In this document: piece by piece, positions 1-14,349 of the stretch
How the letters are laid out: each line of letters opens with the position of its first letter
Position numbering within the stretch: position 1 is the stretch's first letter
From: a virus
Lineage: Duplodnaviria > Heunggongvirae > Uroviricota > Caudoviricetes
Virus record (IMG/VR): IMGVR_UViG_2585427756_000019
Reading direction: 5' to 3' (one strand)
Length of the DNA: 14,349 nucleotides
The notes under the pieces: generated by a model
Seen by the model: only the letters and a program-made list of their open reading frames with translations
What the model was told of the DNA's origin: nothing
The model's database searches: none
Translations under genes and position numbers: made by a program

Positions 1-176
1 TATACGCGCTGTATCTCTTTCTTCAGCCAGTCATCGCGCTGCGCACGGGCACTGCGTTTATCCGGATGATGTCGCTGTTGCTGACAGTGGTAATACGTTG
101 ACGGGGCAATATGCAGTTCGCTGCATAGCGGTCCGACCCCGTACTGCTCACGCAGCTTATCCAGCAGTGGCATCAT
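1..176 (-). CDS. IS3-family transposase OrfB, N-terminal part only (truncated by window edge)
   Basis: Minus-strand translation from 176 gives [58 protein letters not shown]..., a conserved IS3-family OrfB N-terminus. It is in the -1 frame overlapping the OrfA stop. Confidence 0.8.
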
Positions 177-499
177 TTTTTCCAGAGGCGGTCGAACTCC
201 GCCTTCGCAAAATAAGCGGAAGCCTGGCGAAGGATATCGTTACTGCGGCGCAGTTCACGATTTTCACGCTCCAGCTCTTTCAGACGCTGACGTTCAGCGG
301 TGGTGAGCCCTCCATCACCGCCCCCGGTATCCCGCTCATGCTGGCGAACCCAGACACGCAGAGTCTCCGGCGTACAGCCAATCTTTGGAGCAATGGAACA
401 AATTGTCGCCCATTGTGAGTCATATTCGCCCTGACTTTCCAGAACCATACGGACTGCCCGTTGACGGACTTCAGGGGAAAAACGAGTATTTTTAGTCAT
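173..499 (-). CDS. IS3-family transposase OrfA (helix-turn-helix and leucine-zipper subunit), IS629-like
   Basis: The 108-aa [59 protein letters not shown]... matches my recollection of IS629/IS1203 OrfA. It starts 5 bp inside the inverted repeat after an AGGA ribosome-binding site. Confidence 0.9.
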
Positions 500-553: not shown

Positions 554-1253
554 AACTGTACGTCGACTGATACAGCGGATTAACGAGATAATGATTTACG
601 CTGTAAACACTGGTCTGATTGATGCCAATCCAGCATCGGGGGTTGGGATGGCCTTTGAGAAGCCCAAAAAGCAAAACATGCCAACATTGCGGCCAGAAGA
701 ATTGCCGAAGCTGATGCGTTCTTTAGCTATGTCAAACCTATCTGTTTCGACTCGCTGTCTCATTGAATGGCAACTCCTGACACTTGTGCGTCCTTCTGAA
801 GCCTCTGGTGCTCGTTGGGCAGAGCTCGATCTTGATACAAAGCTCTGGACTATTCCGGCAGAGAGAATGAAAGCCAAACGAGAGCACATTGTTCCTTTAT
901 CACCCCAAGCTTTAGATATTTTGGAAGTGATGAAGCCCATCAGTGCTCATCGTGAACATATTTTTCCTAGCAGAAATGATCCTAAGCAATCAATGAATAG
1001 CCAAACTGCTAATGCAGCTTTAAAACGTATTGGTTTTGGAGGAAAGCTAGTTGCTCATGGCCTCCGATCTATTGCAAGTACAGCAATGAATGAAGCTGGG
1101 TTCAATGCGGATGTTATTGAAGCAGCTTTAGCTCACAGTGATAAAAATGAAGTTCGTAAAGCCTATAATCGTTCAACCTACCTGGTTCAAAGAAAAGATT
1201 TAATGAACTGGTGGGGATTATTTTGTATTAGTTCGAAGAGTGTGAATAAATGA
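554..1253 (+). pseudogene. int: P4-family tyrosine integrase, C-terminal catalytic part only; 5' part separated by the IS insertion
   Basis: The reading frame is open from the first base after the IS repeat (554) to the stop at 1251-1253. It contains the HxxR box (HGLRS) and the C-terminal VRKAYNRSTYLVQRKDLMNWW motif typical of P4-type integrases. The ATG at 591 in the ORF track is only the first in-frame Met. Confidence 0.8.
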
Positions 1254-2887
1254 ATACTTATAAGCAAACCATTAAACAAAAATCAAGATTAAACATATGG
1301 GAAACAGCTATCGCAAGGTTGACAACCCAAGCTGAGAGCTCAAGAATCTTAGAATCAAACTATTTAACAAATCTTATAGATTTTTGTTGGAAAGATACAC
1401 TAAATCAAGTTGCTATATATGATGAGAGCATTGTATTACGCAATGGTTATAATTGGGTGCAAAAAATAAGTGATAGTTATAAACCTAAAGCTGCAAGTGA
1501 ACTAAAGATTGCTTTCTTTTGCGGCCCTGAACCAGAAAATGACTTGGATATACTCTTATCATTAGATGTTAGAATAGAAAATATCTGGGCTTTTGAAATT
1601 GATAACAATTCATATAACACTGCCTTACAAAAAGCTAAAGAGTTCTATCCAAAATTAAAAATATTCCCTGGTTCTATTGGGGAGTTTTTTAAAACCACAC
1701 ATCATACCTTTGATATTATTTACCTTGATTTTACAAGTTCGTTATTGACTAAAAAGAGCCCTCCCCTTGGAGTAATAAACTCTGTATTTGACAATCAGGC
1801 CCTATCAGACTTAGGGGTGTTAATTGTAAACTCTTGCGAACCCGATGCTAACGAAGATAACGCAACATTTCTTGCAAGTTATTTCATGAATCACGAAATA
1901 ATTGAATCATCTGTAATTAACAAAACTAATGATGATGATTATGATGATAACTATGATTATTTTTCACTTTTTATTGAATCCCCCACATCACAAGGATACG
2001 ATGATATAAAGTCATTAGCAAAAGTTATAAAGACTAACATATCCGGAGCGTACTCTGCCTTTTCAACAAGTTATGTAATGCACTATGCTTCAATGATTAG
2101 TCCAACACTTCGTTTTCTACAAAATAACTCATTAAAAAGACAATTATTTAATGATAAAAAAGCTGAAGTAACTGCAACCTTTGCAGAAATTGGATCAACT
2201 GACTTTTTCAAAACATTAATATCAACAGATGGTGAAGCATCGTCCCCCTCCATTTTAGGAAACAGATTCCTAGATAATGAAAGCTACCCATTCTGGAATT
2301 TCATTGATTCATTAAATGGCTCAGGAACAAGTATTTCATCTTACTTTAAGAGCTTTTTCACCACCGCTAAAGAAGGTGTATCCATTTTAAATGCCGTGCA
2401 ATTTCGGGAATCATTTCACTCAATGCTTACAGGAGCTAGAAAGCTATTATCTCAGCGAATGCTCAATGCAATACCCCAAATAATAAAAGCAATTCCTGAT
2501 GCTAGAGGTGGTTTATTCTGTGACATTCCTTTACCCCACCTTTGGTTAGAGGTGGCACTTAATCAGTTAGGTGCACCATACCATGTAAACGTGAAAATGC
2601 ATAATCGATGGAAATATAAAGCAAAAACTCGCACAATGCATACGGACTTATTTGTTTTTGATAGATGCAGAGGTTTTTATGACTCAATGCCTATGATAGA
2701 TCAATACGAAACGATTCTTACTAACATCGAAGAACAAATTTTCGCTAGGTGTTGTATTGATATTATTGGTAAGCAATGTCGTTGGCCAACTCCAAAACTT
2801 TATTTTGGTTCGAACCTAATTGGAATAAACGAGTCTGATTGGTCTGAGTTCGCCGAACTTCGTGAAAGAGAAATTATAAAAGAATAA
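1250..2887 (+). CDS. Hypothetical 545-aa protein of unrecognised family; cargo gene in the int-cos slot of the satellite (candidate anti-phage defence protein)
   Basis: Long uninterrupted ORF whose ATG overlaps the integrase stop (ATGA at 1250-1253). Spot counts give about 22-32% GC, against clearly GC-rich backbone. The N-terminal third shows a beta-alpha alternation with FFCGPEPEND and FDIIYLDF motifs (Rossmann or methyltransferase-like, tentative). There is an acidic DDDYDDNYDYF tract mid-protein. No family assigned. Confidence 0.8.
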   Translation: MNTYKQTIKQKSRLNIWETAIARLTTQAESSRILESNYLTNLIDFCWKDTLNQVAIYDESIVLRNGYNWVQKISDSYKPKAASELKIAFFCGPEPENDLDILLSLDVRIENIWAFEIDNNSYNTALQKAKEFYPKLKIFPGSIGEFFKTTHHTFDIIYLDFTSSLLTKKSPPLGVINSVFDNQALSDLGVLIVNSCEPDANEDNATFLASYFMNHEIIESSVINKTNDDDYDDNYDYFSLFIESPTSQGYDDIKSLAKVIKTNISGAYSAFSTSYVMHYASMISPTLRFLQNNSLKRQLFNDKKAEVTATFAEIGSTDFFKTLISTDGEASSPSILGNRFLDNESYPFWNFIDSLNGSGTSISSYFKSFFTTAKEGVSILNAVQFRESFHSMLTGARKLLSQRMLNAIPQIIKAIPDARGGLFCDIPLPHLWLEVALNQLGAPYHVNVKMHNRWKYKAKTRTMHTDLFVFDRCRGFYDSMPMIDQYETILTNIEEQIFARCCIDIIGKQCRWPTPKLYFGSNLIGINESDWSEFAELREREIIKE

Positions 2888-2902: not shown

Positions 2903-2921
2903 GTGCTTTCCCCGCCTCGCC
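2903..2921. other. cos: P2/P4 cos cohesive-end sequence (19 nt)
   Basis: GTGCTTTCCCCGCCTCGCC is the exact reverse complement of the P2/P4 cohesive end GGCGAGGCGGGGAAAGCAC (recalled). It lies between the cargo gene and psu, as in P4. Confidence 0.8.
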
Positions 2922-2945
2922 CCCCCCCTTTGCGGGGGGGGTTTT
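2920..2945 (+). terminator. G/C homopolymer hairpin (C9-tttgc-G8) followed by TTTT; possible terminator for the cargo gene and/or part of the cos packaging region
   Basis: Run of 9 C at 2920-2928, loop TTTGC, run of 8 G at 2934-2941, then TTTT at 2942-2945. Confidence 0.4.
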
Positions 2946-3023
2946 AATGCAGTTGCACTGACACGCTCAGACCGCGCCGGGAATGGCGCGGTTTGCAGAA
3001 AATGAGGCAGGGAAACGCATGCA

Positions 3024-3086: not shown

Positions 3087-3659
3087 TTACACTGACTGAC
3101 GTGATGCAAGTTGCGCACTTTTACGCGAAAAAATCATGTTCTGCGCAGGGGTGAATTTTTCACGGCTGTCATCCACCGAAGCCACGTCAGGCCTGAATCC
3201 GATGGTCGTTAAAATGTCGCTATCCTGTGCGGAATAATTAATTTTTTCACCCTTCGCAAGCCAGGACAGAAGGGCTTCACGCAGGGCATCTGTGGCACGC
3301 TGTATGGCACAGTTTCGGGCAATGGCCGTCAGCTCACTGTAGCCCATCAGCTCCGGTGCCAGTGCGGCCGCCAGTACTGTGCCGTGCTGCTGCATAAAAT
3401 CATTCAGCCGGTCGCGGATGCTGATGTGCTGAACGGCTTCATGCGAACGAATATAACGACCGGCGGCCTGATTCACCTGCCATTTTCTGACTTCGATAAT
3501 ATTGCGTAATTCGTCCAGGCGGCTGACGTTTCTGCCTTCTCCTGACAGAAGCCGCAGATATTCCTGTTCGGCCGCTGCCAGCTCATTTTTGCGTTGCAGC
3601 CATGCTGCTTTGTTATTCTGACAGGTGTCAAAGGCCTGCTGTAAGGCTGTGCTTTCCAT
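3087..3659 (-). CDS. psu: Polarity suppression protein Psu (capsid decoration / Rho antagonist), P4-like
   Basis: 190-aa ORF beginning MESTALQQAFDTCQNNKAAWLQRKNELAAAEQEYLRLL..., matching P4 Psu in length and recalled sequence. It is last in the sid-delta-psu operon. Confidence 0.9.
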   Translation of the reverse strand: MESTALQQAFDTCQNNKAAWLQRKNELAAAEQEYLRLLSGEGRNVSRLDELRNIIEVRKWQVNQAAGRYIRSHEAVQHISIRDRLNDFMQQHGTVLAAALAPELMGYSELTAIARNCAIQRATDALREALLSWLAKGEKINYSAQDSDILTTIGFRPDVASVDDSREKFTPAQNMIFSRKSAQLASRQSV

Positions 3660-3732: not shown

Positions 3733-4233
3733 TCATTCCAGACGCAGCGAATATGATTGTGTTTTTAACCGTACTGGCGGCAGTTCCTGTTTTTCATGCA
3801 GGCGTTCTGCCAGTTCGTCCGGCGTGACCGGGCGGACAATGAAGCGGGTGATGGTCTGAAGCGTTTTAAACACCAGACCACAGTCCGGATCCGTGCACAC
3901 ATAAAAACGCTCGGTGACTTCCTGAGACAGACGCCGCGATGTTCTTGACAGCGCAAGGCCTTTACATCTCCGACAACAATATCCGGTAACAAGCATTCTT
4001 TTCGGGCGTTTCATACTGCCGGAGGCTGACGTCAGTGAATCGCGGTATCTCTGTTTGCCTGAAATGTATTCCATTCCTGAATCTTTACTGTCAGAGAAAA
4101 AGCTTTCACTCGCTTCAAATGTCGCAGAGCAATAAATATTCCGGCACTGTGCAATCATTATCTTGGTGCCATCGTCCATGAAATGTGCGCGACGGGTGTG
4201 AGCAACATGTCCACACGACGGGCAGTAAATCAT
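3733..4233 (-). CDS. delta: Delta late-gene transcriptional activator (tandem Ogr-like zinc-finger domains), P4-like
   Basis: 166 aa with two Cys-rich Ogr-type modules (MIYCPSCGHVAHTRRAH...QCRNIYCSATF and ...YCCRRCKG...YVCTDPDCGLVF). Its start overlaps the sid stop (ATGA at 4230-4233). Confidence 0.9.
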   Translation of the reverse strand: MIYCPSCGHVAHTRRAHFMDDGTKIMIAQCRNIYCSATFEASESFFSDSKDSGMEYISGKQRYRDSLTSASGSMKRPKRMLVTGYCCRRCKGLALSRTSRRLSQEVTERFYVCTDPDCGLVFKTLQTITRFIVRPVTPDELAERLHEKQELPPVRLKTQSYSLRLE

Positions 4234-4964
4234 GACAGCAGTCCTCTGGCCTTAAGCTCTGCTCCCTGCTGGTCTATTTTGTCCTGCCACACCTTGCGCT
4301 GTGCCGGTGTGCCTGCCACCTCATAATCCATGTGCGGGAGTGTTGCCGCTGACAGTCCGGTCAGCCGGAGAACCGGCTCGCCGGTGAGGCTGATTTGCAT
4401 CTGTTTAATTTTCTGTTCCAGCGATGATTTCACCTGCTGCATGACAGCTTTATCGGGTGCGACGTAGCCCTGATGGCCGGTGGTGTTGGCGAGCGGATTT
4501 TCCTGTACCAGGATACTCAGATGCATTGCCCGGACAAGCGCCTCACAGGTTTCATTCAGGGCGTGTTCCAGCTCATGCTCTGCATACAGACTCAGAAGGT
4601 GATGATGTGCCTTCCGGTAGGCGGTGGCCGTGCTGTCACACGCCCCTTTCAGGCGTTCACGTTCGAAATTCAGCACCACGGCCAGATTGTCATATTCCTG
4701 TACCAGCTCCCGGCGTGCCACGCGCTCAATGTGGCGCTGTTTCAGCTCGTCGCTCAGGACACCACCGGCTGCACGAAAGGCCGTGCGCCAGTCGTCAGCG
4801 TCGTTTCCGTTGGCCTGCGTCAGCGCATTTTTTTCCTGCTCTGCCCGTTCAATGGCCGTGATGGTCTCATCCATCAGGCGGGCGTTCTCAAGATGAGCGG
4901 CTCTGGCCTTTTCCAGTTGTGCCAGTGCGGGTTGCAGATATTCAGGGATGGTGTTGTCAGACAT
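4230..4964 (-). CDS. sid: Sid external scaffold / capsid size determination protein, P4-like
   Basis: Start assigned to the second Met (MSDNTIPEYLQPALAQLEKARAAH...), which gives 244 aa as in P4 Sid and is preceded by GAGGAG at 7-nt spacing. The upstream ATG at 4982 overlaps that ribosome-binding site. Confidence 0.9.
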   Translation of the reverse strand: MSDNTIPEYLQPALAQLEKARAAHLENARLMDETITAIERAEQEKNALTQANGNDADDWRTAFRAAGGVLSDELKQRHIERVARRELVQEYDNLAVVLNFERERLKGACDSTATAYRKAHHHLLSLYAEHELEHALNETCEALVRAMHLSILVQENPLANTTGHQGYVAPDKAVMQQVKSSLEQKIKQMQISLTGEPVLRLTGLSAATLPHMDYEVAGTPAQRKVWQDKIDQQGAELKARGLLS

Positions 4965-5036
4965 TTTCCGGCTCCTCGTCACTTCAGGTTAAGAAAATTG
5001 TGACGTACACCGGACAACAACACGACGCATTGCAGA

Positions 5037-7577: not shown

Positions 7578-9911
7578 ATGAAAATGAACGTAACCGCCAC
7601 CGTCAGCCATGCGCTCGGCCACTGGCCGCGTATTCTCCCGGCGCTGGGGATTCAGGTGCTGAAAAACCGTCATCAGCCCTGTCCGGTCTGTGGCGGGAGT
7701 GACCGCTTCCGTTTTGATGACAGGGAGGGGCGCGGCACCTGGTACTGCAATCAGTGTGGTGCCGGTGACGGCCTGAAACTGGTTGAAAAGGTGTTTGGTG
7801 TCTCCCCGTCCGACGCGGCCGCAAAGGTGGCTGCCGTGACCGGCAGCCTGCCCCCGGCTGACCCGGCAGTGACGGCTGCCGCCGGTGCTGAAACAGACGC
7901 TGCCCGGAAGAACGCCGCCGCACTGGCACAAACCCTGATGGCGAAAACCCGTCCCGGAACCGGTAACGCCTACCTGACCCGCAAGGGCTTTCCCGGCCGG
8001 GAATGCCGGATGCTGACCGGCACACACAGAGCCGGTGGCGTGAGCTGGCGTGCCGGTGACCTTGTGGTGCCACTGTATGACGACAGCGGCGAACTGGTTA
8101 ACCTTCAGTTAATCAGTGCTGACGGCCGTAAGCGCACCCTGAAAGGCGGACAGGTCAGGGGCACCTGTCACACCCTTGAAGGACAGAATCAGGCCGGAAA
8201 ACGTCTGTGGATAGCGGAGGGATACGCGACCGCACTTACCGTGCATCACCTGACCGGTGAAACGGTGATGGTGGCGCTTTCTTCCGTGAACCTCCTTTCT
8301 CTGGCCAGCCTTGCCCGGCAGAAGCATCCGGCCTGTCAGATTGTCCTTGCCGCAGACCGTGACCTCAGCGGTGACGGCCAGAAAAAAGCCGCCGCAGCCG
8401 CAGATGCGTGTGAAGGTGTTGTTGCCCTGCCGCCGGTCTTCGGTGACTGGAATGATGCCTTCACGCAGTACGGCGGGGAGGCCACCCGTAAGGCCATTTA
8501 CGATGCCATCCGGCCACCGGCTGAAAGCCCGTTCGACACCATGAGTGAAGCGGAGTTTTCCGCCATGAGTACCAGCGAAAAGGCCATGCGTATCTATGAG
8601 CATTACGGCGAGGCGCTCGCGGTCGATGCCAACGGCCAGCTTCTGTCCCGCTATGAAAATGGTGTCTGGAAGGTGCTGCCGCCACAGGACTTTGCCCGGA
8701 ATGTGGCCGGGCTGTTTCAGCGGCTGCGCGCGCCGTTCTCCTCCGGGAAGGTGGCCTCCGTGGTGGACACCCTGAAGCTGATTATTCCGCAGCAGGAAGC
8801 CCCCTCCCGCTGCCTGATTGGCTTTCGTAACGGCGTGCTCGACACGCAGAACGGCACGTTCCACCCGCACAGTCCGTCACACTGGATGCGTACCCTGTGC
8901 GATGTGGATTTCACCCCGCCGGTGGAAGGGGAAACGCTGGAAACCCACGCCCACGCGTTCTGGCGCTGGCTTGACCGTGCCGCCGGTGGCCGTGCGGAAA
9001 AACGCGACGTGATTCTGGCCGCACTGTTTATGGTGCTGGCAAACCGCTATGACTGGCAGCTCTTTCTGGAGGTGACCGGTCCCGGCGGCAGCGGCAAAAG
9101 TATCATGGCCGAAATAGCCACCCTGCTGGCCGGGGAGGATAACGCCACGTCGGCCACCATTGAGACGCTGGAATCCCCGCGTGAACGTGCCGCGTTAACT
9201 GGCTTCTCACTGATACGCCTGCCGGACCAGGAAAAATGGAGCGGCGACGGAGCCGGACTCAAGGCCATCACCGGCGGCGATGCAGTGTCCGTTGACCCGA
9301 AATACCGGGATGCGTACTCCACGCATATCCCGGCGGTGATTCTGGCCGTGAACAATAACCCGATGCGCTTCACCGACCGCAGCGGCGGCGTGTCACGCCG
9401 GCGGGTGATTATTCACTTCCCGGAACAGATAGCCCCGCAGGAGCGCGACCCGCAGCTTAAGGACAAAATCACCCGCGAGCTGGCGGTCATCGTGCGTCAC
9501 CTGATGCAGAAGTTCAGCGACCCGATGCTCGCCCGGTCACTGCTTCAGTCCCAGCAGAACTCAGACGAGGCACTGAACATCAAACGGGATGCCGACCCGA
9601 CGTTTGATTTTATCGGCTATCTGGAAACCCTGCCGCAGACCAGCGGCATGTATATGGGGAACGCCAGTATCATCCCGCGTAATTACCGTAAATACCTCTA
9701 TCACGCCTATCTGGCCTACATGGAGGCAAACGGCTACCGGAATGTACTCAGTCTGAAAATGTTCGGGCTGGGGCTGCCGGTGATGCTGAAGGAATACGGA
9801 CTGAATTACGAGAAGCGCCATACCAAACAGGGGATACAGACCAACCTGACACTGAAAGAGGAAAGCTACGGCGACTGGCTGCCAAAATGTGACGCCCCTG
9901 CAACAACCTGA
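7578..9911 (+). CDS. alpha: Alpha protein: bifunctional primase / SF3 helicase with C-terminal origin-binding domain, P4-like
   Basis: 777 aa, the P4 alpha length. N-terminal zinc-binding motif CPVCGGSDRFRFDDREGRGTWYCNQCG, Walker A GPGGSGKS at LEVTGPGGSGKSIMAEIA, AAGGAG ribosome-binding site upstream. Confidence 0.95.
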   Translation: MKMNVTATVSHALGHWPRILPALGIQVLKNRHQPCPVCGGSDRFRFDDREGRGTWYCNQCGAGDGLKLVEKVFGVSPSDAAAKVAAVTGSLPPADPAVTAAAGAETDAARKNAAALAQTLMAKTRPGTGNAYLTRKGFPGRECRMLTGTHRAGGVSWRAGDLVVPLYDDSGELVNLQLISADGRKRTLKGGQVRGTCHTLEGQNQAGKRLWIAEGYATALTVHHLTGETVMVALSSVNLLSLASLARQKHPACQIVLAADRDLSGDGQKKAAAAADACEGVVALPPVFGDWNDAFTQYGGEATRKAIYDAIRPPAESPFDTMSEAEFSAMSTSEKAMRIYEHYGEALAVDANGQLLSRYENGVWKVLPPQDFARNVAGLFQRLRAPFSSGKVASVVDTLKLIIPQQEAPSRCLIGFRNGVLDTQNGTFHPHSPSHWMRTLCDVDFTPPVEGETLETHAHAFWRWLDRAAGGRAEKRDVILAALFMVLANRYDWQLFLEVTGPGGSGKSIMAEIATLLAGEDNATSATIETLESPRERAALTGFSLIRLPDQEKWSGDGAGLKAITGGDAVSVDPKYRDAYSTHIPAVILAVNNNPMRFTDRSGGVSRRRVIIHFPEQIAPQERDPQLKDKITRELAVIVRHLMQKFSDPMLARSLLQSQQNSDEALNIKRDADPTFDFIGYLETLPQTSGMYMGNASIIPRNYRKYLYHAYLAYMEANGYRNVLSLKMFGLGLPVMLKEYGLNYEKRHTKQGIQTNLTLKEESYGDWLPKCDAPATT

Positions 9912-10513: not shown

Positions 10514-10565
10514 GGAGCCGCGGCTCCTGGTAACATGAAAGCCCACAGATGTGGGCTTTTTCGTT
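10514..10565. terminator. Two tandem stem-loops downstream of the autotransporter stop (perfect 14-bp palindrome GGAGCCGCGGCTCC and AGCCCAC..GTGGGCT followed by TTTTT on the plus strand)
   Basis: Palindrome at 10514-10527. Hairpin at about 10540-10560 with T5 on the plus strand. Sits between convergent transcription units. Confidence 0.4.
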
Positions 10566-10570
10566 GATGG

Positions 10571-13500
10571 TCAGAACGACCAGTTCACACCAGCTACCGC
10601 GTTCCACGGGGATTCCACACCGGCACTATGGCTATACCCCACCCCAAGATGCCCGCTTAACGTACTGCTGAATGAGGCTTTAATACCTGCCTGGTATATT
10701 CCACGTCTGCCCGACAAATAATTGACGAAATTACCGTCACTATTCACTTTCACCCGGTTATCATCGACAAATTCTTTGCGCACAGCCGCCTTCAGCCACG
10801 GCTCAACTTCCATACCGTTCCCCAGACGCATGTTGTAACTCAGCGTTGCGCCCAGTTCACGATATATACTGCGGGTATCGACTGATTTCGATTTCATGCC
10901 ATTGGATAAATGATATTCGGGGTTATCAGCGGTGAACCCCGTTAACGATGCATACGGCGTCAGGTTCCAGTTACCATCGGTAAATCGCATCCCGGTTTCA
11001 ATGTGACCGCCCAGCCCGTTGCTGTGGTAACTGCCATTGGCGGCTCCACCGCTGCTCATTTTACCTGCTACGTTACTTTTAAAACGGTTCAGCTTCACGA
11101 CACCGTCCAGATAGAAACCACTTTCATGTTCCCAACTGGCATAGCCGCCCAGAGAATAACTGCCCACACTGCCATGTCCTCCGCGATCAAAACCGATATG
11201 TGAATGGGAATAGCCCATAAAAGCGCCTAGCGTGGTAATTCCTTCAGGAATATCATTACGGCTGTCGATCCCCACTGTCATTCCGGTCAGCGTCTGCTCA
11301 AACCCGGCACCCGCATCGGTGGTGACATTATTACGGGTGTTATACGTCGCCCCCCAGACATTATTGTTGTGTGGACTCGCTTTCATTATGTTCAACCGCT
11401 CGCGAATACTGTTTAGCTCAGCATCAAATACCAACGGTAATGTTGCTGCCATATTGAGTACGGCTGCCGTAGAAGGCGTAATGCGTTTCTCCGGAACGGG
11501 TGTCGGCGTTGGATCGGGAGTAGGGTCTGGTTTTGGATTTGGGTCTGGCTTTGGATCGGGTTTTGGGTCTGGCTTTGGATTTGGGATGGGGTCCGGGTTG
11601 GGTTTGACATCATTGGTCAGGTTCCAGTTGCTGTTGCCGTCACTTTTCAGGACATACTCATAGGTCCCAAGATCAACGAAACCGCCGGTATTGCCCAGCG
11701 TAAACGAAGCATCCCCTCCCCCTGTTTTCACCAGCGTCATCGCGTCGTCAGACTGTGGGCTGACGCCGGTATCCTGAACAAAGATTTTAAAATTACCAGT
11801 GGCGTTGTTGTTGACGACCAGTTGATCGCCCCGGGAGCCTGCAACGTTGGTATGCAGGTAGAAATTACCGCTACCGGAAAGTTCATTGGTTGTCAGCGTA
11901 TTGTAGATACCGTTAGTTGTGGCAGGCGCTGCTGTTTGTGCTGACAAATAAACATCACCGTCGTTGAGTAGCAAACTGTTTACTCTATATTCGCAGTTGC
12001 TGGTACCTGCACAGGAATTATTGCTGTTAAGCCAGACACTGCCCCGGCTGGCAGCCGTCAGGTCGGCAAGCGTGGTATCGACGCCATTTCCCAGAGTCAA
12101 TGTCGCGCTATCGGTAATCCGGACCGCCCCTTCGAGTTTAACTGGCGTAACATTATCCCGTGGCGTCATTAACGACAGGCTTCCTGTCGCGCCACTGACC
12201 GATGCATCCGCCAGCGTACCTGCGTAGACGATTGCCGTACCGCCAGCGACCTGGAGATCTTCTGCCCGGGCCAGAGCCTGAAACTCATCTTTTGACCGCC
12301 CAAGGGTATATTGCCCGCCAGAGTTAACCTTTGTGGCGGAGTCCTGACCCAGGTTTTGCATTGCCCCACCCTTGCCAACCGTGGAGTCGCGAGCTTCGGT
12401 ACCTGCTAATACCAATAAATTACCGCCATTTTCCAGCAACATATTGGTCGCTAAATTGCCGGAAATGGAAAAAGTACCGTACTGGTGAGTACCGCTGATT
12501 TCAATACCGTTAGCCGTGCTCGTCTGGAGAGCGGCACCGCTGTTCTGGACGATATCTGTCGCTTTGCCATTATCGTTGACTGTCAGCGTACCGCCTTCAT
12601 TGATCTTTGTTTTTATTGCCTCTCCGTTAGCTGAAACTGTTTGTATTCCGCCGTCGTTAATTGTTGTCTCATTCGCCACACCCTCGACAATTTGTTCACC
12701 GCCGGTGAGCGTCGTGCCTGTCGCAGTGGCTTTTGTTTTGACGATCTCCCGTCCGCCCATATTGACCTGTGTTTTGTCAGAAGAGGTGTCTGACTCCACG
12801 GTTAACACGCCGCCATTTGCCAGCAGGATATTGTTCGCCGCACCCTGCTCGATGCTGAACGCGACGCCATCCGCGCGTGTTCCTGTGACCCGCGTCGCCC
12901 TGGTGGTTGCAACCAAAGCGCCCTGGCTACTCTGCTGTATCCCCGTTGCGCTGCCTTTCTCCCGCACATCGAGTGTGCCGCCGTCATTAAGCACCGAGTT
13001 TTCAGCCAGACCGCCCTCATTAACTACCTGTGAACCCCCATTAATAATGGAACCTTCCGCTGTCCCGTTTGCCATAATTTGTTGTAGGCCAGAGACGATA
13101 TCGGTATTGATTGCCTTACCATAATTCTGAACGGTTTGCGTGCCACCATTGATGTGTGTTTTCTCTGTTGACCCACCATCAACAATTTGTTCACCACTTT
13201 CGATATTTGCTTCAGTGGCTAAACCATATACCGTTTGCTTGCCACCTTTGATATTTGCTTTATCAGAAGTGGCACTGGCATATATTGTTTGGGTGCCAGC
13301 ACTATTGAGTACAGTGCCAACATCTTTTCCATAAACATCCATTTTGCCGTTGGCATTAATAATCGTGTCAACTGCGCGGGAACCAGTGACGACTGTTAAT
13401 GAGCCAGCGTTTTCCAGCACTACATTTTTAGCTTCTGAATTCCTGATGTAGAAAGCATCACCATAACTGTTGGTTCCTTCGATAAGTGTTCCGGAGGTCG

Positions 13501-13718
13501 TGGAAGCAATTAATGCGCCGCCGGATTGTTGCTCAACATGCTTAGCCTCACCACCGTCCTGAACCTCCAGAACGCCGCCATTATTAAGTCTGGTGCTATC
13601 TGTTTTAGCCTCCTTCTGGACAATCAGCTTACCGCCAGTATCAATGGTAGTATTTTTCGCCGAGGTTTTAGCCACTACCGTCAGTTCGCCGGTATTTTCC
13701 AGCACAACATAATTAGCC
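10571..13718 (-). pseudogene. AIDA-I/Ag43-type autotransporter adhesin (beta-helical passenger, Pro-rich linker, C-terminal beta-barrel); 5' end removed by the IS10 insertion
   Basis: C-terminus ...NAVAGVNWSF is an autotransporter barrel signature. Linker PNPDPIPNPKPDPKPDPKPDPNPKPDPTPDPTPTPVP. The passenger has Gly-rich beta-helix repeats. The apparent N-terminus MCIHLNLMIFTKIIRGF is encoded by the IS10 end and there is no signal peptide, so the ORF is a fusion artefact. Confidence 0.85.
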
Positions 13719-14349
13719 CTGATGAATCCCCTAATGATTTTGGTAAAAATCATTAAGTTAAGGTGGATACACATCTTGTCATATGATCAAATGGTTTCGC
13801 GAAAAATCAATAATCAGACAACAAGATGTGCGAACTCGATATTTTACACGACTCTCTTTACCAATTCTGCCCCGAATTACACTTAAAACGACTCAACAGC
13901 TTAACGTTGGCTTGCCACGCCTTACTTGACTGTAAAACTCTCACTCTTACCGAACTTGGCCGTAACCTGCCAACCAAAGCGAGAACAAAACATAACATCA
14001 AACGAATCGACCGATTGTTAGGTAATCGTCACCTCCACAAAGAGCGACTCGCTGTATACCGTTGGCATGCTAGCTTTATCTGTTCGGGCAATACGATGCC
14101 CATTGTACTTGTTGACTGGTCTGATATTCGTGAGCAAAAACGACTTATGGTATTGCGAGCTTCAGTCGCACTACACGGTCGTTCTGTTACTCTTTATGAG
14201 AAAGCGTTCCCGCTTTCAGAGCAATGTTCAAAGAAAGCTCATGACCAATTTCTAGCCGACCTTGCGAGCATTCTACCGAGTAACACCACACCGCTCATTG
14301 TCAGTGATGCTGGCTTTAAAGTGCCATGGTATAAATCCGTTGAGAAGCT
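13719..14349 (+). mobile_element. IS10 (IS4 family; Tn10-type), outside end plus 5' half of the transposase, continues past window end
   Basis: From 13719 the sequence reads CTGATGAATCCCCTAATGATTTTGGTAAAAATCATTAAG..., the IS10 terminal sequence as I recall it. Confidence 0.9.
13826..14349 (+). CDS. IS10 transposase, N-terminal part (open to window end)
   Basis: ATG at 13826 translates to MCELDILHDSLYQFCPELHLKRLNSLTLACHALLDCKTLTLTELGRNLPTKARTK..., the IS10 transposase N-terminus. Not listed in the ORF track because there is no stop in the window. Confidence 0.9.
   Translation, partial: MCELDILHDSLYQFCPELHLKRLNSLTLACHALLDCKTLTLTELGRNLPTKARTKHNIKRIDRLLGNRHLHKERLAVYRWHASFICSGNTMPIVLVDWSDIREQKRLMVLRASVALHGRSVTLYEKAFPLSEQCSKKAHDQFLADLASILPSNTTPLIVSDAGFKVPWYKSVEK

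Follow-up and report, generated by a model that had tools for sequence, protein, structure and literature searches.

A low-G+C cargo gene between int and psu of a P4-like satellite encodes a protein with a predicted class I methyltransferase fold and a candidate role in phage defence

In P4-like satellites, the int-psu locus has been validated by experiment as a reservoir of anti-phage systems (Rousset et al. 2022, PMC9122126). The majority of the int-psu cargos tested so far defend against phages (PMC9122126; PMC13586616), and in a 2026 study six of eight randomly chosen unannotated P4 cargos gave protection (PMC13586616). In MADS, an 8-gene operon that uses methylation for self-marking, MAD2 is the N6-adenine DNA methyltransferase (10.1101/2023.03.30.534895). 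In the present study, we analysed a 14,349-nucleotide stretch of DNA (IMG/VR virus record IMGVR_UViG_2585427756_000019; the whole stretch is hereafter called the window). The window is a P4-like phage satellite, and its open reading frame (ORF) at 1250-2887 on the + strand is a cargo gene between int and psu. From its location and its relatives, an immune role of the cargo protein appears probable. The chances seem about even that the protein is all of the following: a single-protein anti-phage effector enzyme, dependent on S-adenosylmethionine (SAM) and belonging to a new family.

We collected 180 homologues, aligned 118 of them, and built an AlphaFold2 (AF2) model of the cargo protein on these 118 sequences. 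The model had a mean predicted local distance difference test score (pLDDT) of 93.4 and a predicted template modelling score of 0.94. A sequence-only reading of the window had proposed a divergent Rossmann or class I methyltransferase-like fold at 1490-1850, in the N-terminal third of the protein. The peptides on which it relied are all encoded inside this region, namely LKIAFFCGPEPEND at residues 85-98 (nt 1502-1543), NIWAFEID at residues 111-118 (nt 1580-1603), and FDIIYLDFTSS at residues 154-164 (nt 1709-1741). The alternation of strands and helices that it noticed is genuine, as the AF2 model shows the class I methyltransferase order over residues 87-243. The elements are b87-90, a95-104, b112-116, a119-132, b137-141, a143-149, b154-160, a172-181, b185-196, a202-212, b217-219, and b241-243, which correspond to the order b1-aA-b2-aB-b3-aC-b4-aD-b5-aE-b6-b7. 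The Rossmann-like sheet is thus present in the model, and the structural search returned methyltransferase folds. The fold proposed for 1490-1850 was therefore retained, but its limits were not: the domain covers about residues 79-250 and extends to about nt 1999. The placement in the N-terminal third does not hold literally either, since a helical segment of 78 residues precedes the domain.

All of the 60 structural matches listed were SAM methyltransferases, aminopropyltransferases, or methyltransferase-like proteins. The top Foldseek matches were all SAM methyltransferases, and RsmD/YhhF was one of the Foldseek matches. The best structural matches were Trm1 (tRNA (guanine26-N2)-dimethyltransferase; PDB 3axt and 2dul; Pfam TRM, PF02005), TYW2, and spermidine synthases, and Trm1 was the best. 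In the profile search against the PDB, the domain alone matched TrmR with an E value of 0.016, which is not significant alone, and TrmR was also the sole match of the full-length profile (E 1.4). In the TrmR alignment, E116 and D160 stand opposite the Glu of strand 2 and the Asp of strand 4, respectively; the two residues align to equivalent residues of both TrmR and spermidine synthase. When 45 family members were compared with Pfam (E <= 10; the 25 most-shared of 29 families), sub-threshold matches recurred only in the methyltransferase clan. Spermine_synth was found in five of the 45 members, and Methyltransf_25, Methyltransf_30, Methyltransf_31, and Cons_hypoth95 were also found (1-5 of 45 each). 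The PADLOC mad2 methyltransferase model matched three of the 45 members (best E 1.6e-6). The methyltransferase signal in the sequences is thus marginal but consistent. Together with the model, these results indicate that residues ~79-250 almost certainly adopt a class I methyltransferase fold.

We then measured conservation in 133 aligned cluster representatives (50% identity or less). In the loop after strand 1, which takes the place of motif I, G92 (99%), P93 (92%), P95 (100%), N97 (96%), and D98 (99%) are conserved. The acidic end of strand 2, the canonical position for binding the SAM ribose hydroxyls, is occupied by E116. In strand 4, D155 (99%), Y158 (99%), and D160 (100%) are conserved, and N111 (97%) and N194 (94%) are further conserved positions. 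The cofactor-site positions rank among the most conserved of the protein, a pattern that indicates a specific, selected pocket. The sequence-only reading had favoured an inert SAM- or nucleotide-binding sensor over an active methyltransferase. This preference found no support, the canonical cofactor and catalytic positions being 97-100% conserved. An active transferase is at least as good an explanation of the predicted pocket as a sensor of a ligand, and catalytic activity of the predicted methyltransferase domain seems slightly favoured. In the helical segment before the domain, Y4, K9, R13, and T25 are near-invariant. Between strands 6 and 7 of the domain there is an acidic low-complexity loop, NDDDYDDNYDYF (residues 226-240, window 1925-1969), where both the confidence (pLDDT ~72-81) and the conservation (0.17) are lowest, and which differs in length and composition among homologues.

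The C-terminal domain of about 300 residues has no relative among the solved structures in the PDB, Trm1 included. Its conserved core contains the near-invariant residues D425, R453, Y456, K459, D466, D471, R474, R500, and D504. Column identity in residues 421-435 and 466-480 is 0.78-0.81, equal to the conservation of the cofactor site. No nuclease or hydrolase fold or motif was found in the core by profile, Pfam, or structure searches. A PD-(D/E)xK nuclease and a zinc site were considered for the core and dropped, as there was no fold match and C473 is not conserved. The C-terminal domain of Trm1 holds the tRNA substrate and does not catalyse. By this analogy, the C-terminal domain of the cargo protein is most likely the substrate-binding half, and the region may conceivably hold a second catalytic site.

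A profile search of 1.84 billion representatives gave 523 clusters at E <= 1e-3 and 240 at E <= 1e-30. Nearly all of the family clusters (50% identity) share an architecture of 500-560 amino acids. The hosts include Enterobacteria, Vibrio, Aeromonas, Pasteurellaceae, Burkholderiales, Myxococcota, Paenibacillus, and Methanosarcina, whose proteins are ~35-48% identical to the window protein. Such a patchy range, from Enterobacteria to Methanosarcina and Paenibacillus at ~40% identity, indicates horizontal transfer. The family is rare, being found in five of 5426 complete E. coli genomes, at seven loci in IMG/VR, and on three plasmids, and no homologue was found in 50,697 deposited phage genomes. 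In the five E. coli genomes the cargo protein is 100% identical and is annotated as 'hypothetical protein' (WP_021572920.1), and the satellite element, 99.7% identical, adjoins ssrA (the transfer-messenger RNA gene). WP_021572920 was not mentioned in the literature searched.

In every context examined, the family gene was solitary. A conserved partner gene was considered and rejected, since none was found across 10 contexts. The int-cargo-psu layout is also present in a Rahnella P4-like satellite, at the same smpB-side site as the ssrA insertion in E. coli. In the chromosomal integron of V. parahaemolyticus, a homologue with 48% identity forms a single-gene cassette flanked by attC-type repeats (TAACAAA...GCGTTA; L002 7811-7962 and 9611-9781). 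The neighbouring cassettes there encode acetyltransferases, T5orf172, PLDc_2, and an ADP-ribosyltransferase Tse2-like protein. In prophages, the family gene lies in the replication or nin-type region: in Aeromonas it has lambda O/P on one side and NinB on the other, with HNH and KAP NTPase genes adjacent, and in an IMG/VR contig it lies between a replication gene and DUF968. In Salmonella, it is in an integrase-relaxase island. Lone insertions were observed in Mannheimia, Melittangium, Methanosarcina, and Paenibacillus.

Two metagenomic proteins, P0238 (1124 amino acids) and P0262 (785 amino acids), join a retron-type reverse transcriptase (RT) to the complete module. They are 34% identical and come from independent assemblies; P0238 is present in two assemblies. 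Their RTs match three PADLOC models of single-gene retrons, with E values of 1e-130 to 1e-111 (RT-Protease_XI, RT-TIR_XII, and RT-Toprim_I-C). Residues 352-764 of P0262 align to family positions 16-502 (hhalign probability 99), and the near-invariant residues of the family are kept in the RT-fused modules. The nearest RTs (45-52% identity over the RT) carry Trypsin_2, TIR_2, CHAT, DUF4435, pP_pnuc_1 (the pPIWI-associated nuclease domain), or DUF4062 at the same C-terminal position. RT-fused domains of this kind are retron effectors in the classification of Mestre et al. 2020 (PMC7736814). As a protease, a TIR domain, or a nuclease can stand in for the module at its place behind an immune RT, the module is most simply explained as an immune effector. 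We regard this slot as the strongest single argument for a defence role. The first 240 called residues of P0238 look like an over-extended ORF that may cover a non-coding RNA (ncRNA) region, where Rfam found nothing. In the 14-kb window there is no RT, and the window protein is neither fused to nor beside a retron RT.

On this basis, we propose that the cargo is a self-contained anti-phage defence gene in the int-psu hotspot and that its product may act as an effector. The protein has three predicted parts: a short helical N-terminus, a divergent Trm1-like methyltransferase-fold domain, and the C-terminal domain of ~300 residues. The predicted ligand of the pocket is SAM or a SAM-like nucleotide, and D160, helped by the N-terminal helix and the C-terminal core, would catalyse the transfer of a methyl or other SAM-derived group. 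The target would be a nucleic acid or a nucleotide. The activity would be unleashed, or become relevant, upon infection, and phage propagation would be blocked. The variable insert (residues 296-350) may give trigger or target specificity.

Several observations weigh against this proposal. The cargo protein itself matched nothing in the Pfam, NCBIfam, and PHROG models or in phmmer against the PDB, and none of the PADLOC 2.0.0 families at E <= 1. There is no glycine-rich motif I of the GxGxG type; as the sequence-only reading had noticed, the loop is atypical, with a single invariant Gly in C-G-P-E-P and prolines at the usual glycine sites. It had also noticed correctly that DPPY or NPPY is absent from the end of strand 4. 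A motif of the form (D/N/S)PP(Y/F/W) does not occur there, and the cargo reads L-D160-F-T-S. Close relatives have F-T directly after D160, and distant ones have G-C, A-C, or S-T; since this position is variable (F/G/A/S), the chemistry cannot be assigned. The RT fusions number only two, both metagenomic, and the Rfam scan gave no credible match to a retron ncRNA beside them. The contexts in Mannheimia and Melittangium and that of P0088 are not obviously defence islands. The missing (D/N)PP(Y/F) motif weighs little, because it marks amino-group methyltransferases only; most class I methyltransferases other than the DNA and amino-group enzymes normally lack DPPY or NPPY. Type XI retrons have been reported without a recognisable ncRNA (PMC7736814), and two of the eight P4 cargos tested in the 2026 study gave no protection (PMC13586616).

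We rated the enzyme reading higher than its main rival, in which the methyltransferase-fold domain is catalytically dead and senses SAM or a nucleotide, while the effector proper is the C-terminal core, which might for instance be a metal-dependent nuclease or hydrolase with a novel fold. Rossmann-type ligand-sensing modules are frequent in immune proteins, and the atypical glycine loop, the lack of (D/N)PP(Y/F), and the unfixed position after D160 would all suit such a module. The C-terminal core would suit this reading as well: it matches the cofactor site in conservation, contains many invariant Asp and Arg residues, and has no structural relative. However, the invariant positions include those relevant to catalysis in class I enzymes and not merely those for binding (D160 100%, D155 99%), no search gave a nuclease or hydrolase fold or motif for the core, and the C-terminal domain of Trm1, the best structural match, is a substrate-binding and not a catalytic part. 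We thus consider a dead sensor domain unlikely, although it is the most serious of the alternatives.

Could the protein instead be a non-immune accessory enzyme, that is, an RNA, protein, or small-molecule methyltransferase or an aminopropyl or aminocarboxypropyl transferase, which benefits the host or the element and rides in variable regions? Integron cassettes and prophage morons have many non-defence functions, some of the loci lie among ordinary metabolic genes, and the top structural matches are housekeeping tRNA or small-molecule enzymes, with Spermine_synth sub-threshold in five members. The patchy distribution with horizontal transfer, the placement exactly between int and psu in P4-like satellites of two genera, the joining of the entire module to retron-type RTs at the effector position, and the presence in only five of 5426 E. 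coli genomes, a rarity typical of swapped defence cargo, argue against an accessory enzyme and make it quite improbable. Still less can be said for an orphan DNA methyltransferase that shields satellite or host DNA from restriction (anti-restriction, self-marking). Mobile elements often carry orphan DNA methyltransferases, and the weak PADLOC matches to mad2 point in the same direction. However, the protein has neither (D/N/S)PP(Y/F/W) nor a PCQ/ENV catalytic motif; N6_Mtase, MethyltransfD12, and DNA_methylase were not among the most-shared Pfam families (E <= 10; 25 of 29 examined); and the family is absent from the 50,697 deposited phage genomes. That the module is fused in the effector slot of retrons likewise speaks against a self-marking enzyme, for which such a fusion would be unexpected. 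This reading was rejected on motifs and match ranking and appears very improbable.

The features of the satellite and of the cargo gene are given in Table 1. The integrase gene and the cargo gene form one transcription unit, in which the cargo ATG overlaps the integrase stop codon (ATGA). The G+C content of the cargo ORF is 33-35%, compared with 52-60% in the rest of the satellite, and is ~20 points lower than that of its flanks. The low G+C content, the overlap of the start codon with the integrase stop, and the hairpin downstream make 'cargo' a fitting term for this ORF. This strong, terminator-like hairpin is very rich in G+C and separates the cargo gene from psu, which converges on it. It is located in the cos-proximal region of P4-type elements and could be a bidirectional terminator.

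Table 1. Coordinates of features in the window and of the two RT fusion loci
Feature	Position	Strand	Basis or remark
Integrase, 3' part (P4-type, catalytic domain)	591..1253	+	Pfam Phage_integrase, E 2.5e-31
Cargo ORF, 545 aa plus stop	1250..2887	+	translation
N-terminal helical segment, residues 1-78	1250..1483	+	helices 7-24, 36-53, 59-75 (AF2)
Class I methyltransferase-fold (Rossmann-like) domain, residues 79-250 (predicted)	1484..1999	+	
Atypical motif I loop C91-G-P-E-P-E-N-D98, after strand 1	1520..1543	+	
E116 at the C-terminal end of strand 2, 97% conserved	1595..1597	+	AF2 and alignment
Strand 4 and motif IV equivalent, F154-D-I-I-Y-L-D160-F-T162	1709..1735	+	
Variable insert, residues 296-350	2135..2299	+	27-99 aa across homologues; column identity 0.16-0.30
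Conserved C-terminal core, residues 416-510	2495..2779	+	inside the 296-residue domain
Terminator-like hairpin	2920..2951	+	8 G-C pairs, C8-TTTGC-G8, then TTTT; 33 nt past the cargo stop
psu (polarity suppression protein), other hotspot border	3087..3659	-	Pfam Psu, E 3.9e-88
delta (Ogr/Delta zinc-finger gene)	3733-4233	-	
sid-like gene	4230-4982	-	
Icd-like gene			between the sid-like gene and the alpha primase gene in left-to-right listing
alpha primase	7578-9911	+	
P0238 / P0262 fusion loci	L012 2012-5386 / L014 504-2861		

The 5' part of the integrase gene is missing in the window. The region 1-542 is a multi-copy repeat found at ~24,000 places in 3779 E. coli genomes, plasmids too, and its ORF at 173-499 (-) encodes the N-terminus of an IS3-type transposase (HTH_Tnp_1, E 6e-13). 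The P4 integrase gene has lost its 5' 495 bp to this repeat, so that the integrase is truncated to its catalytic half; in the five complete genomes it is intact (401 amino acids). The satellite in the window is thus probably immobilised. At the other end, identity to the reference satellite locus stops at 10561. Within the remaining part (10562-14349), the ORF at 10571-13774 (-) is a gene for a 1067-amino acid autotransporter adhesin of the Ag43/AIDA type (TIGR01414, E 2e-96). The right flank differs in the five complete genomes with the same cargo, which have glaH in this place.

Some family members have additional parts or neighbours. P0176 (777 amino acids) has an N-terminal fusion with a domain of the poly-gamma-glutamate hydrolase type (Gamma_PGA_hydro, E 3e-40), P0257 bears an N-terminal MYND zinc finger, and P0110 and several other members have unannotated C-terminal extensions of ~100-180 amino acids. 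In one IMG/VR contig (L021 9797-10660), a gene for a D12-class N6-adenine DNA methyltransferase lies 2 kb downstream of a family member, which has a catalase gene upstream. This neighbour was seen once and is probably coincidental.

If the proposal is correct, the family would represent an effector that is used alone in P4 satellites, integron cassettes, and prophages, or plugged into retron RTs. The methyltransferase fold would then be a weapon and not the self-marking half of a restriction-type system. If the protein defends, a SAM-dependent transferase would be used offensively, outside the usual nucleases, NADases, proteases, and pores. The recurring 'hypothetical protein' in studies of P4 satellites, integrons, and prophages would also receive a name. 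Apart from this, the family adds a confidently predicted domain of ~300 residues with no relative among solved structures. A literature search on methyltransferase-type single-gene defence and on retron fusions of this type gave nothing equivalent, and we could not find this effector type described among P4 hotspot cargos or RT-fused retron effectors. It is possible, though doubtful, that the protein represents a new class of immune effectors in Bacteria and Archaea, as its founding member. In this single polypeptide, a Trm1-like, SAM-dependent transferase domain joined to a domain of unseen fold would chemically modify a nucleic acid or nucleotide of the phage or the host and thereby stop the infection.

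Among enzymes of known structure, Trm1 resembles the cargo protein in its class I fold, where motif I is likewise atypical and holds a single Gly, and in its two-part architecture of a methyltransferase domain and a C-terminal substrate-binding domain. The strand-4 motif of Trm1 is DPFG, an Asp and then an aromatic residue, as in D160-F161 of the cargo protein. The sequence identity, however, is 9-15%, and the cargo reads D-F-T where Trm1 reads D-P-F-G. The TRM family was not among the matches of the 45 members to the most-shared Pfam families, and the cargo C-terminal domain has no PDB counterpart; the cargo protein is thus not a member of the Trm1 family. Trm1 is also encoded by a housekeeping gene, whereas the cargo is mobile and patchy. 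The sequence-only reading had compared strand 4 with RsmD (Cons_hypoth95, PF03602), the family of 16S rRNA m2G966 methyltransferases. FDIIYLD of the cargo indeed resembles FDLIFLD of RsmD, and the Cons_hypoth95 model is sub-threshold in two of the 45 members. However, the cargo lacks DPPF/DPPY, RsmD is a single-domain protein of ~190 amino acids, and its similarity to the cargo is no stronger than that of more than 200 other class I enzymes. The likeness to MAD2 is a weak local similarity over ~70 residues of the motif I-III region (P0176, E 1.4e-4); the window protein does not match the mad2 model, and no other mad genes are nearby.

With respect to defence systems, the cargo matches no described system, and its domain make-up is found in none of Crouga, Bandua, Aernus, Toga, Reve, and Hailong (PMC13586616). 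It nevertheless occupies the identical slot of the P4 int-psu hotspot and, like the defence genes there, is a single-gene, low-G+C cargo swapped between near-identical satellites. The methylase fusions reported for UG25 and UG35 involve another group of RTs and have the methylase at the N-terminus (PMC9226505). The single-gene retrons (I-C RT-Toprim, XI RT-protease, and XII RT-TIR) are closer, as in P0238 and P0262 the module replaces Toprim, protease, or TIR behind an RT of the same kind. The window protein differs from them in standing alone; as it has neither an RT nor a nearby retron, it must sense or be regulated otherwise. The combination of an RT with a methyltransferase-like module is not among the 13 described retron types, and, if the proposal is correct, it would define a new one (RT-methyltransferase-like).

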